Source: a virus. From it: DNA of 53,795 bases. Below the pieces are notes generated by a model. It searched no databases, was not told where the DNA came from, and was given only the letters and a program-made list of their open reading frames with translations. This document shows, piece by piece, positions 2 through 6,117 of this stretch (positions are counted from its first letter, which is position 1; each line of letters starts with the position of its first letter). The translations under genes were made by a program, and so were the position numbers. Location of the stretch: UHGV virus genome UHGV-0191815; one strand, 5' to 3'.

Positions 2-1363
2 GCCTCAATAAGCAATCTTGAAAGTAAAACTGACGCCAGCGTTTCACGTCTCGATCAGGCTATCGCTGACGAATCCAGCGCACGCAGCCAGGCAGTGAGC
101 AACGTTAACGCAAGCATTTCAACGCTCGACAAGAAAACCGACGCCAGCGTTAAACGCCTGGATCAGGCTATTGCTGACGAGGCCAGCGCACGCGCTGAAG
201 CTATCAGTGGTGTGAATGCATCAATTTCAACACTTGATGGCAAGGTCACAAGCAACGTGACTCGTATTGACAAGGCCATTGCCGACGAAACGAAGGCGCG
301 CACTGACGCGATAAGTAACCTTAACTCATCGCTTACCAGTACGATTAACTCGAAGGTGTCTGAAGTGTCAACGGCGCTTTCCACGCATGAAGCATCAAGC
401 GCGGAAAAATTTAGCCAGATTTCAGCGTCTTTCGAATCTGTAAACTCAAGCATTACAGAATGGTCGCAGTCTATGGCAACGGCTGACGAGGCACTATCAA
501 GCAAAATCGATCAGCTAACAGTGACCGTTAACGGGAACACAACGGCAATAGAAACGACGTCAAAAGCGTTAACCGACTTCAAGGGCAATGTTGATGCGAC
601 GTACTCCATCAAGCTGGCAACCGACAACAACGGCATGAAATACGCAACAGGTATGTCACTTGGTTTAACTGGCAGCGGTACTAACGTTCAATCGCAGTGT
701 ATTTTCCTTGTTGACCGCTTCGTATTGATGACCGCAGCAAACGGCACATATACAACGCCTTTCTATGTGTCTAATGGTGCAATGTATGTGAAAGAAGCGT
801 TTATTAAAAACGCATCAATAGGAACGGCTAAAATCGCAGATGCAGCCATTACTACGGCTAAAATTGCACAGCAGATACAGTCAACCAATTACGCCGCAGG
901 ATCTTCCGGGTGGATGATTAACAAAAACGGTAGCGCGGAGCTTAACAACGTAACGGTAAGAGGAACAGTGTATGCCAGCAGCGGTAAGTTCTCCGGGTCA
1001 CTTGAGGCTAAGACCTTTATCGGTGACGTTGCGAATATGTATACTGGATCTGACGTTAGCAGATTAGCCGATGGCGTACTGGAAAAAACAATAACATACA
1101 ATGACACATCTGACGCAGCGCACAGCCGACATATCTGCGTTATGGCAAACGTCAAAGGTTTTGGTGGCTGTACGATAATCATCGGCAGTTCAGAGAAAAG
1201 CCTATCTATGTCTGGCGACGAGCGCCTTGTTATGCACTCATCATCGGTAACTAGCAAGAGCGTTACAGTTAAAATTAGGGTATCCGCTCAAAATGGTAGG
1301 GGGGCTTATATAAATTCACCGACCGTCATTGTGTCGCGCGGTTCTGGTTCATTCTCAGGATAA
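2..1363 (+). CDS. J: C-terminal part of J-like tail tip / host-specificity protein; open from the window start, probably the continuation of 50603..53795 across the circular junction
   Basis: Frame starting at nt 2 has no stop from the window edge; translation begins with 36-aa repeats (NASISTLDKKTDASVKRLDQAIADExSAR) that match the repeats at the window end; the ORF-track start at 95 is an internal GTG. Confidence 0.6.
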   Translation, partial: ASISNLESKTDASVSRLDQAIADESSARSQAVSNVNASISTLDKKTDASVKRLDQAIADEASARAEAISGVNASISTLDGKVTSNVTRIDKAIADETKARTDAISNLNSSLTSTINSKVSEVSTALSTHEASSAEKFSQISASFESVNSSITEWSQSMATADEALSSKIDQLTVTVNGNTTAIETTSKALTDFKGNVDATYSIKLATDNNGMKYATGMSLGLTGSGTNVQSQCIFLVDRFVLMTAANGTYTTPFYVSNGAMYVKEAFIKNASIGTAKIADAAITTAKIAQQIQSTNYAAGSSGWMINKNGSAELNNVTVRGTVYASSGKFSGSLEAKTFIGDVANMYTGSDVSRLADGVLEKTITYNDTSDAAHSRHICVMANVKGFGGCTIIIGSSEKSLSMSGDERLVMHSSSVTSKSVTVKIRVSAQNGRGAYINSPTVIVSRGSGSFSG

Positions 1364-1368
1364 AAAAC

Positions 1369-1395
1369 AACCCCGCTTCGCGCGGGGTTTTCTTT
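1369..1395. terminator. Bidirectional intrinsic terminator between the J-like gene and the convergent lipoprotein gene
   Basis: GC stem ccccgc/gcgggg (1371-1376, 1382-1387) with an A-run upstream and a T-run downstream. Confidence 0.55.
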
Positions 1396-1643
1396 TAGTA
1401 GTTAGCTACACAGTTCGACGGGCTACCGATGCGGCGCATGTTGTGATCGAGTTCATGACACCATTGCCCAGTATACGGCAGTTTTTCAGTGTCATAGACA
1501 AGATGACCGCTTCCATCATATACAACATCTTGTGGAATCACTCCGCTATTCGGCAGGTTATGCAATGCAGCCTCTTTGTCAACAGCACAGCCAGTAAGAG
1601 ATACAGCCGCAGCAAACAAAACCACTTTGAACACGTTTTTCAT
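1395..1643 (-). CDS. Small lipoprotein (82 aa); possibly a Cor-like superinfection-exclusion protein
   Basis: N-terminus MKNVFKVVLFAAAVSLTGC has a signal peptide and lipobox (LTG|C); it sits just after the receptor-binding tail genes on the opposite strand, the position Cor takes in FhuA-dependent phages. Confidence 0.55.
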   Translation of the reverse strand: MKNVFKVVLFAAAVSLTGCAVDKEAALHNLPNSGVIPQDVVYDGSGHLVYDTEKLPYTGQWCHELDHNMRRIGSPSNCVANY

Positions 1644-1820
1644 TTTTGAATCCTCATTCTTGTTTGCTCATCCGGTTCATCCGGTGGCTTAAATATCCGA
1701 CAAAACCACATTTCGTATATTGACATAAATCAACAAATACATTTTGTGTAAGCAGAAAATGCAACATAGATCACAAAATGGTAGAATTATTCCGTTAATT
1801 AACATAATGGAGTCATTGCG

Positions 1821-4604
1821 ATGATTTACACAACTGGAACAATTGCCATTAATGGCAACACTGTTAATGGCGCGGGGACAAACTTCTCCGAGCCGCTTTC
1901 TCTCATTCGTGTGGGCTGCACGCTTATTGCTATCAGCAACCCTATCCAGATCTTTACAGTTACAGAAATCAAGAGCAGCACAGAACTGTCAGTAACGCCA
2001 GCGGCTAACCCTGCAATTGCTGCCGGAACAAAATTTAGCATTCTGCTTTCCGACTCGATCTCAGTTGATGGGCTTGCTCAGGACGTAGCTGAAACGCTGC
2101 GTTACTACCAGGGCAAGGAATCAGAGATCGCAACGGCGGTCGAGTGGTGGAATGAGTTCGGCGGTGATGGTCAGATGGAGCAACTTCTTGCCGACATTCG
2201 CACAGAAACGGCGCAATCAACCGCCAACGCTCAAAAAACAGAATCAGACAAAAACGCAGCGGCATCATCAAAAACAGCAGCAGCAAACTCAGCAACCGCA
2301 GCAAAAGCGTCACAGGATGCAGCAAAAGCCAGTGAAACAGCATCCAGCAACAGCAAAAAAGCGGCGGCTACCAGTGAAACCAATGCGGCAAAATCAGCAG
2401 CCGATGCGCTTAACTATCGCAACCAGGCACAGGCCATCACCGGATCTAACATCGGTCTTTCCTCAAATCCTCGAGACTGCCCGGATATTTCAGGAAACCC
2501 ATCAGGTTATCTTGGCTTTCTGCGCATCATGGAAGGGGCTACCGGGTGGCCTTCTATTGCTTCAGGTGAGCGCTATTTGTCTGGCTTTATTTGCCCGACT
2601 TTAGGCAGTGTCCCGGCATTTTCTGGTCTTTTTATAGGGCATATTACCGGCAGTGCTTACACTTATAAGTGGAGCGAATCAACAGGACCGCAATGGGCTA
2701 GACACGCAAGAAAAGATGAATTAGATGAGAATAGCTCACCACAGTTCAGATCTGTAAGTTTAAAAAGAGTTAGTGACTCGACTACCGGATGGGTTGCAGG
2801 AGGTCTTTTATCTAGCGTTTTGGTTGGTACATCAGGATCAGAACGTGTTTACGGTGGACTATACCCTGAGACAAACCTTTCTTTGCCTGACCAATTAACA
2901 CTACATTTGAGATCTGGCGGCGTGAACAGATACGCAAGCCTTAACGTAAACGGTGAATTTATAGCTGACTCTTTCAAACCTAAAAACGCTGAACAGACAA
3001 GGAGAAACATCAACATCCCAACCATAGGCGGTGGCGAGATAATAACAATCGAAGCACCGGAAGGCGTTGAGGATGGGAAGTATTACCCTATAATTATAAA
3101 CGCCAGTTATTACAGCGCGTACATAACTGGCTATCAGATCGATATTGTTACAGCGTCTGGCGCAGGTAATTACCCAATGAACTGTAACACCTTTTCGGGG
3201 TATGTAAGGACTGGTGGGTGGAGCGACAGAAAAGACGGCGGTTATGGTTACTATAATCGTTATAGTGATAAAGAAATCGCTTTACAATCTATCTGCAGTT
3301 CCAGCAAAGACAAAGATAATTTGCTCTTTGTTTTTGTTGAAGCAAGGGCATTTCCTGTTAAAATGCGCTTGCCTGTAGGCGTAACAGCAGAAGCACCAGC
3401 GGCCCAGGTTGTGTATGATAGTGGTAAAGATACAGAAACGATAATCCCGTGGGGTGTATCAGATCCGCTTAGTTCATATAAAAACCTGCAGGTTATGTTT
3501 GACTTCAGGATGGGTCGGTGCGGCTTTTATTCTGCAACGACTGAAGGACTTTATTATATTTGTAGCGGTGGCAGGGTCGGCCTGTTTAACGGAATTACCG
3601 TTGGCGAAGAAATATCTATGACGATGCCAAAGCTAACTATAAATGGCATGATAGGATCATCTAATGGTTACGTTGCACAAACTGACGCTGATTGGAATGG
3701 TCAGCAGTCAGATGGCATAAGCAAGTTTAAACCTATTGCTGGCAATGTTAACACGCCTGAAAACAGCCTAACTTATGGTGGTTTTCATGTTGGATTTAGC
3801 AATAGCCACGCAACTCAATTCGCCGGGCGCAATTCAAAATTCTACGCAAGAAGTTTTGAGGCCGGAGTAGATAAAGGTTGGCGTAGGCTTGCGACGCTTA
3901 ACGATAATCTTGTGCAAAGGTGGACGGGATACCAGGAATTTAAATCAACTGATTTTTATTCCGATACATTCTCAAGAAAACTATCTTTTAAAGTAACAAC
4001 GTCGACAGTAAGAAACGGAGCATTCGAGCTTTGGGGTGATCCAAACAGACCTACCGTTCTTGAGTATAAAATAAGAAATCCAGAGACAGATACAGCACTA
4101 AAATATGCGTTTTACGCGCAACAGAATACTGATGATTCAATAGTATTCAACGTTAACGGCGCTGTGACATGTGTTACAGTGACCCAATCATCAGATCGCG
4201 ATCTGAAGGACAACATTCAGGTTATAGGTGACGCTACCGAAGCAATCCGTAAAATGAACGGGTACACCTACACGCTCAAGGAAAACGGCCTGCCTTACGC
4301 TGGTGTTATCGCTCAGGAGGTCATGGAAGCGCTGCCGGAAGCTGTTGGATCGTTTACTCATTACGGTGAAGCGTTACAAGGCCCAACAGTTGACGGCAAC
4401 GAGCTACGCGAAGAAACTCGTTACCTAAATGTTGATTATGCAGCGGTTACTGGTTTACTTGTCCAGGTGGCACGCGAAACAGATAACCGCGTCACAGAAC
4501 TGGAAGAAGAAAACGCCAGCCTGCGAGCCAACATTGCCGCAATGGATGAGCGCATCGCAAAACTTGAAGCGCTTGTCAGTAAGTTGACCGGAAGCGAAAA
4601 ATAA
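1821..4604 (+). CDS. Side tail fibre protein with C-terminal intramolecular chaperone (peptidase S74-like) domain
   Basis: 927 aa; N-terminus has Ala/Ser/Thr-rich fibre repeats (KAAATSETNAAKS); C-terminus has SDRDLKDNI...YTYTLKE...GVIAQEV...coiled coil, typical of self-cleaving fibre chaperone domains; RBS ggag upstream. Confidence 0.75.
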   Translation: MIYTTGTIAINGNTVNGAGTNFSEPLSLIRVGCTLIAISNPIQIFTVTEIKSSTELSVTPAANPAIAAGTKFSILLSDSISVDGLAQDVAETLRYYQGKESEIATAVEWWNEFGGDGQMEQLLADIRTETAQSTANAQKTESDKNAAASSKTAAANSATAAKASQDAAKASETASSNSKKAAATSETNAAKSAADALNYRNQAQAITGSNIGLSSNPRDCPDISGNPSGYLGFLRIMEGATGWPSIASGERYLSGFICPTLGSVPAFSGLFIGHITGSAYTYKWSESTGPQWARHARKDELDENSSPQFRSVSLKRVSDSTTGWVAGGLLSSVLVGTSGSERVYGGLYPETNLSLPDQLTLHLRSGGVNRYASLNVNGEFIADSFKPKNAEQTRRNINIPTIGGGEIITIEAPEGVEDGKYYPIIINASYYSAYITGYQIDIVTASGAGNYPMNCNTFSGYVRTGGWSDRKDGGYGYYNRYSDKEIALQSICSSSKDKDNLLFVFVEARAFPVKMRLPVGVTAEAPAAQVVYDSGKDTETIIPWGVSDPLSSYKNLQVMFDFRMGRCGFYSATTEGLYYICSGGRVGLFNGITVGEEISMTMPKLTINGMIGSSNGYVAQTDADWNGQQSDGISKFKPIAGNVNTPENSLTYGGFHVGFSNSHATQFAGRNSKFYARSFEAGVDKGWRRLATLNDNLVQRWTGYQEFKSTDFYSDTFSRKLSFKVTTSTVRNGAFELWGDPNRPTVLEYKIRNPETDTALKYAFYAQQNTDDSIVFNVNGAVTCVTVTQSSDRDLKDNIQVIGDATEAIRKMNGYTYTLKENGLPYAGVIAQEVMEALPEAVGSFTHYGEALQGPTVDGNELREETRYLNVDYAAVTGLLVQVARETDNRVTELEEENASLRANIAAMDERIAKLEALVSKLTGSEK

Positions 4605-4634
4605 GAGGTGATGTGCGAAGAACATCGCCGCGCG

Positions 4635-4662
4635 AAACGAGGCTAACGCCTCGTTTCTTTTT
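4635..4662 (+). terminator. Intrinsic terminator after the tail fibre gene
   Basis: Stem aaacgaggc / gcctcgttt with loop taac, followed by cttttt. Confidence 0.6.
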
Positions 4663-4917
4663 GTGTACCAAATTGTGACCAAATTGATAAATCAAAAACA
4701 AAAACAAAACATAACACATTGAATACAAATGAATTTTTCATTAAGTTATCCATTCAAAAGATAAGTAGGTAACGCCATTTCTATCATTTCACATCGTGTC
4801 ACATCGTCACCGCTTCACATTGATTTTAAAAGAAATATTTATTCTATCGTGTCATATCGTTCCCTATCGTGTTACTATCCATGCGTAAAATGTGTGTACC
4901 AAATAGTGACCAAAATT
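4662..4917 (+). promoter_or_regulatory. Integrase upstream region with repeats; candidate attP / arm-type binding sites
   Basis: Two near-identical 23-bp direct repeats tgtgtaccaaatWgtgaccaaa (4662-4684 and 4893-4915) flank an AT-rich stretch carrying short 10-bp-phased repeats (acatcgtgtc / acatcgtcac at 4791-4810; tatcgt at 4845, 4855, 4865). Confidence 0.35.
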
Positions 4918-6117
4918 ATGCTTACAGATACCAAATTACGAAACATTCACGGCAAGCCATACGACGGCCCGGAAGAAGTACCGGACGCTGGCGGATTGTC
5001 TGCCAGGATAAGCCCGCGCGGAGTTATATCTTTCCAGTATCGCTACCGATTCAACGGCAAGCCTCGACGGATGAAGATTGGCACATACGGAGAAATAACA
5101 CTCAAAGAAGCGCGGGCGGCGGTGGCGGAGCATAAGGAAGTGCTAAACTCAGGCCGAGATCCATCGGTAGCAAAAAGAATGCACCTTTCCCGCGTTACGA
5201 CACGGGCAACGGTTGAGGATATTGTAAGGGAGTACATGGAATCGCCGCAGGCAAGGAACATGGTCAATTATAAGCAGGTTGAGGCCATGCTAGATAAGCA
5301 CGTCATAAAACCATACGGTAGCTATATAGTCGATGATATGGACGCTATGATGTGGGAGGGGGTTTTTAGAAAGGTAGCCAGCGGTGGCGCACCAGTTCAG
5401 GCAGGTATAGTTCTCAACAGAATGAAGGCCGTAATAAAATACGCCATTCGCCGCCGCCGCGTGGATCGTGACGATATATCATTGCTGTGCGTTAAAGACG
5501 TTGGCAAAAAACCAGCGCAAGGCAAGCGAGTTTTGTCAATACAGGAGATCCACCGCCTAATCGGCCTTATAGACAGTTCAAAAATGGCGCGGCTGAATCA
5601 GATATTGATGAAGCTGATTATATTTACCGGGTGCAGGACAAGCGAACTGACAAACGCAAGGCGCGAGCATTTCGATCTTGATAGCTGCGTGTGGACGGTT
5701 CCTGGTGCATTGAGTAAGAACAGGAATGAGTTTAAGCGCGGTTTATCGGGCGTTAGCGTGGCTTTATTGCGTGAGGCTATGGATCTGCATAGCTTTAATT
5801 TTGTCTTCGTTCCTGTGCTTTCTGGAAGGGATGAGGCGGTGGATAGAAGTGTACCAAAAACAGCAGCTAGGGATTTAATGATGAGGATGGGCGGCGAGCC
5901 GTGGTCATGTCACGATCTACGCCGCACCGTGAGGACAAACCTTTCAGCGCTTGGCGTTGCGCCTCACGTCGCGGAAAAGGTTTTGGGGCACAAGCTGGCG
6001 GGAATGTTGGCTATATACGATCAGTATGACTATGTGAGGGAACAAATAGAGGCGATGAATAAGCTGGCTGATTATTACATGAAGCCCATTGACTTACAAA
6101 ATGAAATAACATCCTGA
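4918..6117 (+). CDS. int: Tyrosine integrase, P4-like family
   Basis: N-terminus MLTDTKLRNIHGKPYDGPEEVPDAGGLSARISPRGVISFQYRYRFNGKPRRMKIGTYGEITLKEARAAV matches the P4-type integrase N-terminal domain; C-terminal catalytic region has HDLRRT and Y; the ORF-track start at 4849 is an upstream extension. Confidence 0.85.
   Translation: MLTDTKLRNIHGKPYDGPEEVPDAGGLSARISPRGVISFQYRYRFNGKPRRMKIGTYGEITLKEARAAVAEHKEVLNSGRDPSVAKRMHLSRVTTRATVEDIVREYMESPQARNMVNYKQVEAMLDKHVIKPYGSYIVDDMDAMMWEGVFRKVASGGAPVQAGIVLNRMKAVIKYAIRRRRVDRDDISLLCVKDVGKKPAQGKRVLSIQEIHRLIGLIDSSKMARLNQILMKLIIFTGCRTSELTNARREHFDLDSCVWTVPGALSKNRNEFKRGLSGVSVALLREAMDLHSFNFVFVPVLSGRDEAVDRSVPKTAARDLMMRMGGEPWSCHDLRRTVRTNLSALGVAPHVAEKVLGHKLAGMLAIYDQYDYVREQIEAMNKLADYYMKPIDLQNEITS

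Follow-up and report, generated by a model that had tools for sequence, protein, structure and literature searches.

The exclusion lipoprotein next to gene J in the virus genome UHGV-0191815 is of the LamB-linked Lpp010 type and probably independent of the adjacent S74 lateral fibre

When a phage genome carries a small lipoprotein gene between the tail-tip gene J and a side tail fibre gene, the question arises which receptor the lipoprotein closes to other phages and whether the neighbouring fibre is its partner. We addressed this question for the virus genome UHGV-0191815, of which a stretch of 53,795 nucleotides, here referred to as the window, was analyzed. As confirmed by the list of open reading frames (ORFs), the window encodes an 82-aa lipoprotein (1395-1643, minus strand) convergent with J and, beyond it, a 927-aa side tail fibre (1821-4604, plus strand). 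In a preliminary description of the region, the two genes had been interpreted as a Cor-like inhibitor of the FhuA receptor and its matching fibre. Our comparison with published relatives points, with good confidence, to a different arrangement, in which the region would comprise two separate host-recognition devices: a receptor-plus-exclusion cassette directed at maltoporin LamB, and an independent lateral fibre of the S74 type.

The lipoprotein begins with MKNVFKVVLFAAAVSLTGC, continuing AVDK, and consists of a signal peptide (residues 1-18) followed by the lipobox L-T-G-C with Cys19 (codon at 1587-1589) and an alanine at position +2. These features predict that Cys19 is lipid-modified and that the protein is sorted to the outer membrane; the +2 residue is Ala, Gly or Ser, and never Asp, in 22 of 22 aligned lipoproteins. 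The protein matches phrog_12984 ('lipoprotein', E 2.8e-27), while searches against Pfam, NCBIfam and PADLOC gave no meaningful match. All family motifs, PNSGV, DTEKLPxTGQWC and RIGSPSNC, are present, and Cys62 and Cys78 are, like the lipobox cysteine, invariant in the family alignment and may form a disulfide in the periplasm. Over its full length, the lipoprotein is 98.8% identical to gp116 of phage mEp010, 97.6% to its counterpart in mEp013, 96.3% to those of mEp044 and mEp554, and 91.5% to that of MagusPhagus. Since the only difference from gp116, Ser15 instead of Ala15, falls in the signal peptide, the mature proteins (Cys19-Tyr82) of the window phage and mEp010 are 100% identical; the same value was obtained for mEp013, and 98.4% and 96.9% for mEp044 and mEp554, respectively. 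As judged by its sequence, the protein is a superinfection-exclusion protein, namely the 'type-C' Lpp (phrog_12984) of the mEpimmI phages.

The function of gp116, designated Lpp010, has been studied experimentally. In a lamB knockout, mEp010, mEp013, mEp044 and mEp554 do not plate (PMC11893012), and plasmid-expressed Lpp010 excludes mEp010, mEp044, mEp554 and lambda, all of which are LamB-dependent (PMC11893012, section 3.7). The unrelated type-A lipoprotein of mEp021, Lpp021, excludes mEp021 and mEp515, both of which depend on OmpA (PMC11893012). As the mature protein of the window phage is identical to Lpp010, the exclusion function is established for an identical protein, and it is linked to LamB and not to FhuA. 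Thus, the preliminary description was right about the kind of protein, an exclusion lipoprotein, and mistaken about the receptor. The two phages further agree in the position of the gene between J and fibre, in the terminator and in the phage group to which they belong; apart from residue 15 they differ in the J end, in the length of the fibre (655 aa in mEp010) and in its mosaic composition.

The link to LamB extends beyond the mEp phages. The terminal receptors of 25 small siphophages of the BASEL set have been determined experimentally (PMC8594841, S5 table), and the LamB users among them, Bas21-24, are exactly the four that possess a homologue of the lipoprotein, whereas none is present in the 21 that use LptD, FhuA, BtuB, TolC or YncD, the Seuratvirus VogelGryff included. 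Altogether, 31 receptor-typed phages can be compared: a homologue occurs in 8/8 LamB users (mEp010, mEp013, mEp044, mEp554 and Bas21-24) and in 0/23 others (Bas01-20, Bas25, mEp021 and mEp515). Among independent phages, such a split would arise by chance once in C(31,8), a probability of about 1e-7; phylogenetically, these phages are not independent. This distribution supports LamB as the functional partner of the lipoprotein, and the receptor of the window phage itself is very probably LamB and not FhuA. When the mature lipoprotein was searched by tblastn against 50,697 phage records, phrog_12984 homologues were identified in 44, including mEp-type phages, many Seuratvirus members, the Nonagvirus 9g, the Dhillonvirus members EP23, PNS1, HH3 and Maverick, and a few others. 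In all cases, also in Seuratvirus, Nonagvirus and Dhillonvirus, the gene is convergent with a J-like gene and is followed by a lateral fibre gene.

The preliminary description had based its reading of a Cor-type, FhuA-inactivating lipoprotein paired with the side fibre on gene position, and the position as such was confirmed: the product is a small lipobox lipoprotein of the same size class as Cor, encoded between J and a side-fibre gene, which is where cor sits in N15 and, in exactly the same slot, in a prophage of E. coli UMNK88, a sister of the window phage. However, a small lipoprotein in this slot is common to several unrelated exclusion lipoproteins and is, thus, not sufficient for an assignment to Cor. 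The Cor proteins of HK022 and N15 match phrog_1119 ('Cor superinfection exclusion protein', 1e-32 to 1e-37), which the window lipoprotein does not; no BLASTP alignment between it and either of the two was obtained at E<=100, and the Cor of UMNK88 yielded an 11-residue match alone (E 0.087). In FhuA-dependent phages, cor is accompanied by two upstream genes for membrane proteins (PMC13164509); a tblastn search of the whole window with gp22 and gp23 of N15, their UMNK88 homologues and Cor gave no match at E<=1, and the interval between J and the lipoprotein gene holds a terminator only. In addition, the nearest relatives depend on LamB, a homologue is absent from all nine FhuA-dependent small siphophages of BASEL, and fibre alleles vary independently of the lipoprotein. 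A Cor acting on FhuA is therefore extremely improbable here, and this reading can be regarded as already largely refuted. What the window lipoprotein would have in common with Cor of HK022, N15, phi80 and T1 is the general design, in which the gene following J specifies a small lipoprotein of the outer membrane that closes the terminal receptor used by the phage itself; the window lipoprotein differs in its link to LamB instead of FhuA, in the missing companion genes, in its PHROG and in having no detectable sequence relationship.

The features of the region are as follows.

1395-1643, minus strand: lipoprotein gene, 82 aa, from the ORF list.
1821-4604, plus strand: side tail fibre gene, 927 aa, from the ORF list.
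2-940, plus strand: 3' part of gene J (central tail fibre/tail tip protein), open from base 2, with PF09327.
941-1363, plus strand: exchangeable, putatively receptor-binding C-terminal end of J (last ~140 aa) of the HK97/mEp554 type, delimited by homology breakpoints.
1369-1389, both strands: bidirectional intrinsic terminator between J and the lipoprotein gene, a hairpin with T-runs on both strands.
1644-1820, no strand assigned: divergent intergenic spacer of 177 bp, defined from the sequence.
1821-2381, plus strand: N-terminal anchor of the fibre (aa 1-187), followed by an Ala/Ser/Lys-rich linker, from matches to PDB sequences.
2382-4190, plus strand: shaft and distal tip of the predicted mature fibre (aa 188-790), from mosaic identities.
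4191-4601, plus strand: S74 intramolecular chaperone domain (aa 791-927, 137 aa), PF13884.
4634-4657, plus strand: intrinsic terminator closing the fibre transcription unit, with a 10-bp stem, 6 G-C pairs and a T-run.

The part of the J product encoded at 2-940 comprises tandem coiled-coil repeats of ~33 residues and a Phage_Tail_Tip domain (Pfam PF09327, E 1.6e-40), and it is common to all members of the group, whatever their receptor. Accordingly, J is 84% identical to the J proteins of mEp021 and the UMNK88 prophage up to residues 282-292 of the 422-aa ORF and then diverges, the breakpoint relative to UMNK88 at residue 282 corresponding to nucleotide ~941. In CSP1C, a phage of another lineage, DNA similarity (84%) extends from 943 to 1496, that is, through the J end and the terminator into the lipoprotein gene. 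The coincidence of the breakpoints at ~941 and 943 indicates that J end, terminator and lipoprotein gene form an exchangeable unit. Over its last 199 residues, J is 84% identical to J of mEp554 and mEp044, 77% to that of mEp013, 69% to CSP1C, 59% to mEp010, 55% to 9g, 54% to HK97, which presumably uses LamB, and 51% to KurtStettler. KurtStettler and the mEp phages listed have been shown to depend on LamB (PMC8594841, PMC11893012). No similarity was detected to the receptor-binding end of lambda J (last ~100 aa); what resemblance there is to lambda J ends near lambda residue 997 and covers the conserved tip-fibre domain only. From these relationships we infer that the C-terminal end of J would be the LamB-binding domain and the partner of the lipoprotein. 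The J end (~941-1363) would, thus, bind the terminal receptor, most probably maltoporin LamB, while the lipoprotein would make that same receptor unusable for incoming phages.

How the lipoprotein might do so can be approached from the phages that it excludes. The tips of lambda and HK97-type J proteins are unrelated in sequence, and among the components examined LamB is the sole one that these phages share, which makes direct binding to LamB the best model. The lipoprotein would bind LamB from the periplasmic side and thereby alter or occlude the surface needed by phage tips. By analogy to other exclusion lipoproteins, we see about even chances that it does bind LamB directly in the periplasm and so prevents productive binding or triggering of the tip. 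Two receptor-acting exclusion lipoproteins have been solved structurally together with their receptors, Llp of T5 on FhuA (PMC9586334) and Rtp45 of phage Rtp on LptDE (PMC12685063). The presumed likeness is that of a periplasm-facing lipoprotein that binds the receptor and stops the receptor-binding protein; the window lipoprotein differs in that its target would be a plug-less trimeric porin and in that it shares no sequence similarity with either. A search of the lipoprotein against PDB sequences returned nothing at E<=1 except one chance match (E = 1) and hence gave no sequence link to Llp or Rtp45.

The main rival to a block of LamB is exclusion after adsorption, for example at the periplasmic transit of the DNA or at the triggering of ejection, with LamB itself not inactivated. 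The continued use of LamB by mEp013 in Lpp010-expressing cells, in which LamB must be at least partly accessible, would fit this possibility, and in the part of the published exclusion work available (PMC11893012) no adsorption measurement is found. On the other hand, lambda and mEp phages with J ends unrelated in sequence are excluded alike, the sole common element shown being LamB, the presence of the lipoprotein strictly tracks LamB use across lineages, and the receptor itself is the target of Llp and Rtp45, the analogues with solved structures (PMC9586334, PMC12685063). We therefore regard exclusion after adsorption as unlikely.

Several points nonetheless weigh against an arrangement in which a LamB-binding J end and a LamB-blocking lipoprotein belong together. 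Direct binding to LamB is something we infer for the entire lipoprotein family. mEp013 is LamB-dependent and encodes the same mature lipoprotein, and still escapes exclusion by Lpp010 (PMC11893012), which indicates a block that is less than absolute and varies with the J variant of the incoming phage; for this reason, self-exclusion by the window phage is not guaranteed, and its J end is just 59% identical to that of mEp010. The cassette is also not strictly maintained: HK97 possesses a J end of this type and lacks a lipoprotein gene after J, and in MagusPhagus (PP925836.1) J diverges after residue 313 of the 422-aa ORF and ends in SGSWA (locus ~3400-3751), so that the lipoprotein lies beside a divergent J end and the two are not always co-inherited. 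The relatedness of the 31 typed phages limits what their 8/8 versus 0/23 split can tell. Modeling by AlphaFold2 from the 22-sequence alignment of the lipoprotein was judged unusable (mean predicted local distance difference test score, pLDDT, 54; predicted template modeling score, pTM, 0.28). Finally, a sigma-70 consensus scan found no site in 1644-1820, and the overall count was not above that of shuffled sequences.

The latter observation bears on another possibility, that the lipoprotein is mainly a 'moron' product serving host fitness and that exclusion is a by-product of overexpression from Ptac. The exclusion data were indeed obtained by plasmid expression inducible with isopropyl β-D-thiogalactopyranoside (IPTG), and the native promoter was not identified in the scan. 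However, exclusion is receptor-specific, as Lpp021 and Lpp010 hit different, receptor-matched sets of phages, and the gene is retained beside J in the strictly lytic Seuratvirus and Nonagvirus, in which there is no lysogen to benefit; a moron function is, thus, very improbable. The ATG of the gene is preceded, at a distance of 7 nt, by a ribosome-binding site (GAGGA), and the spacer between the divergent lipoprotein and fibre genes, which is conserved at 97% mean column identity over six phages, must hold the lipoprotein promoter and may also hold that of the fibre. A tandem CCGGATGA(A)CCGGATGA motif is located in the spacer directly upstream of the ribosome-binding site of the lipoprotein gene. 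Two small ORFs rich in Cys, Ile and Leu, 1689-1805 (minus strand, 38 aa) and 1654-1767 (minus strand, 37 aa), are annotated in relatives, in frames that differ between the records; their products gave no family match, and they are probably not genes. On the other side, the lipoprotein gene is separated from the stop codon of J at 1363 by a 31-bp gap, in which the hairpin at 1369-1389 has an 8-bp stem with 6 G-C pairs. Its RNA fold reaches -15.4 kcal/mol (z = -3.72), and none of 200 shuffled sequences was equally stable. Terminators at matching places, between J and the lipoprotein gene and after the fibre gene, are annotated in mEp010, mEp013, mEp044 and mEp554.

This leaves the fibre, which in the proposed arrangement of LamB cassette and lateral fibre would be a device of its own. 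Fibres encoded beside near-identical lipoproteins are mosaic and range over 655, 841, 849, 854, 927 and 1160 aa. The fibre of the UMNK88 prophage, which lies beside a true cor, is 66-79% identical to that of the window at both ends, and similar S74 fibres also occur beside the type-A lipoprotein. A fibre that is variable beside a nearly invariant lipoprotein and similar beside a true cor is not the matched partner of the lipoprotein, and the pairing proposed in the preliminary description has to give way to one with the C-terminal end of J. At its N-terminus, the fibre matches the N-termini of the PDB 'Depolymerase' entries 7VZ3, 7VYV and 7LZJ (aa 4-187, E 1.5e-30) and is 87-93% identical to mEp fibres (aa 1-108 or 1-301) and 61% to gp82 of mEp021; by these matches, the N-terminal domain is the tail-attachment part common to the group. 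Residues 125-208 (2193-2444) form a low-complexity linker rich in Ala, Ser, Lys and Thr, at which AT skew peaks at 0.32 and G+C content at 0.52, and a comparable linker comes after the anchor in the 'Depolymerase' entries of PDB.

The remainder of the fibre is a patchwork. Residues 1-301 are 93% identical to the fibre of mEp013 and residues 608-927 are 80% identical to that of mEp044, while in the middle identity to those of mEp010, mEp013, mEp044 and mEp554 does not exceed 35-38%; residues 387-927 show 59% identity to MagusPhagus. Over residues ~416-790, the fibre shares 46-51% identity with lateral fibres of T5-like phages (HildyBeyeler, JLBYU43) and of Seuratvirus phages, and such lateral fibres were assigned by the BASEL authors, with a question mark, to lipopolysaccharide (LPS)/O-antigen as primary receptor (PMC8594841). 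The target of the window fibre is probably a surface glycan, with which the mature lateral fibre would make the first, reversible contact. A search of the fibre family profile against PDB sequences recovered the N-terminal anchor and the S74 domain only and no solved homologue of shaft or tip. An AlphaFold2 monomer of the C-terminal 527 residues reached a mean pLDDT of 62.5, was confident only at residues ~410-570 and mis-modeled the S74 part as long helices. A Foldseek search of this mediocre model against PDB gave no match at E<=0.001; weak resemblances to pieces of pyocin and T4 fibres and to galectin-like sandwiches were seen, from which no conclusion on the ligand was drawn.

The S74-type chaperone at the end of the fibre, already recognized in the preliminary description, is clearly supported. 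Peptidase_S74 (PF13884) was identified at residues 791-842 (E 3.4e-14, 53.3 bits at a cut-off of 22) and is the only Pfam domain found in the fibre. The segment SDRDLKDNI begins at Ser791 (nucleotide 4191) and contains the intact dyad of Ser791 (4191-4193) and Lys796 (4206-4208); S-D-R-D-L-K is invariant in 23 homologues, and the start of the domain aligns with SSDRRIKKDI of the phage S16 gp37 chaperone (PDB 6F45) and with the MYRF domain 7DC3. Heptads at residues ~885-925 match designed and phage coiled coils, and the C-terminal half of the fibre is found in hundreds of E. coli prophage proteins, all of which carry PF13884. In pb1 of T5, Lys1269 activates Ser1264 for cleavage between Thr1263 and Ser1264, by which a coiled-coil chaperone of 133 residues is released (PMC4690869). 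As the window fibre shows the same Ser/Lys spacing and its last 137 residues end in heptads, cleavage to a mature fibre of 790 residues is very likely in the window phage as well, and by this analogy we hold autoproteolysis to be highly probable. The chaperone would drive trimer folding of the fibre and afterwards release itself by a cut in front of Ser791, with Ser791 and Lys796 as the catalytic dyad. With the chaperones of T5 pb1 and the K1F endosialidase, the domain shares its position and size (~135 C-terminal residues), the Ser/Lys(i+5) arrangement, the trimeric coiled coil and the release after folding, which is predicted here; unlike in these systems, the mature tip of the window fibre is unrelated in sequence to the bullet domain of pb1, and the fibre has no enzymatic domain.

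In relatives, the slot between J and the fibre gene is occupied by different genes. In the UMNK88 sister prophage (NC_017641.1, 1666083-1674173), which is located at abgT, a true cor cassette fills it (locus 2565-3744), encoding proteins 51% identical to gp22 of N15 and 42% to gp23, together with a Cor 38% identical to that of HK022; J is shorter in this prophage and the S74 fibre similar. In mEp021 (MH706966.1), the slot (locus 2297-3450) contains two genes oriented opposite to J, one for a 311-aa 'virion structural protein', gp80, and one for the 72-aa type-A lipoprotein. The layout is similar to that of T5- and T1-like phages, in which the receptor-binding protein has a separate locus, and gp80 may be the OmpA-binding protein.

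By megablast, the region belongs to the mEpimmI (mEp021-like) phages, a group of temperate coliphages that are Nus-dependent and non-lambdoid; MagusPhagus, mEp013, mEp554, mEp044 and mEp010 come closest, with 86-90% identity at partial coverage. These phages maintain the order of J, convergent lipoprotein gene and fibre gene, followed by the attachment site and int. At >=80% coverage, the region was found in no complete E. coli genome. Related E. coli prophages are integrated in abgT, which is one published integration site of the mEpimmI group. Matches to E. coli chromosomes end at 4765-4766 on the fibre side and start at 4756 on the integrase side, both adjoining abgT, which suggests an attachment core of about 10 bp at 4756-4765; the integrase gene at 4849-6117 would encode the published 'type II' (abgT) integrase of this group. 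J itself is split over the ends of the window, with its N-terminal 1064 residues at 50603-53795 and its C-terminal 453 residues at 2-1363. When closure of the window into a circle across J was examined, the reading frames did not join, which suggests a near-complete contig of an mEpimmI phage that was interrupted inside J during assembly, with some sequence missing or collapsed. The break falls in tandem coiled-coil repeats of ~33 residues (ASISxLxxKTDASVxRLDQAIADE). Apart from the lipoprotein gene, a convincing lipobox (VLSGC) is encoded in the window by one ORF only, at 30797-30991 (plus strand, 64 aa); its product is proline-rich after the cysteine and looks like an outer-membrane spanin (Rz1-type) of a lysis cassette.

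The region is, thus, a host-recognition end of the standard kind in a phage group that has been published, and as such it is already known: a report of 2025 covers both exclusion by an identical mature protein, Lpp010, and the dependence of the nearest phages on LamB, E. coli prophages very commonly encode S74 tail fibres, and our analysis has little weight as a discovery. What it provides is a correction, since the position of a gene after J is by itself no basis for calling a small lipoprotein Cor or for tying it to FhuA. In this phage group, the slot accommodates at least three unrelated cassettes, type C with LamB, type A and gp80 with OmpA, and true cor with FhuA. Among the receptor-typed phages, the presence of a phrog_12984 lipoprotein predicts LamB use and is therefore usable as an in-silico receptor marker. 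It might further be hypothesized, as a proposal that could equally well turn out right or wrong, that phrog_12984 constitutes a third, sequence-independent class of receptor-blocking lipoproteins after Llp/Cor and Rtp45, one that acts on the LamB trimer from the periplasm and has spread together with J ends through four or more lineages of siphophages, among them mEpimmI, Seuratvirus, Nonagvirus and Dhillonvirus. If this is true, a structure of LamB with the lipoprotein would show how a plug-less porin is disabled for both lambda-type and HK97-type tips, and how mEp013 escapes.

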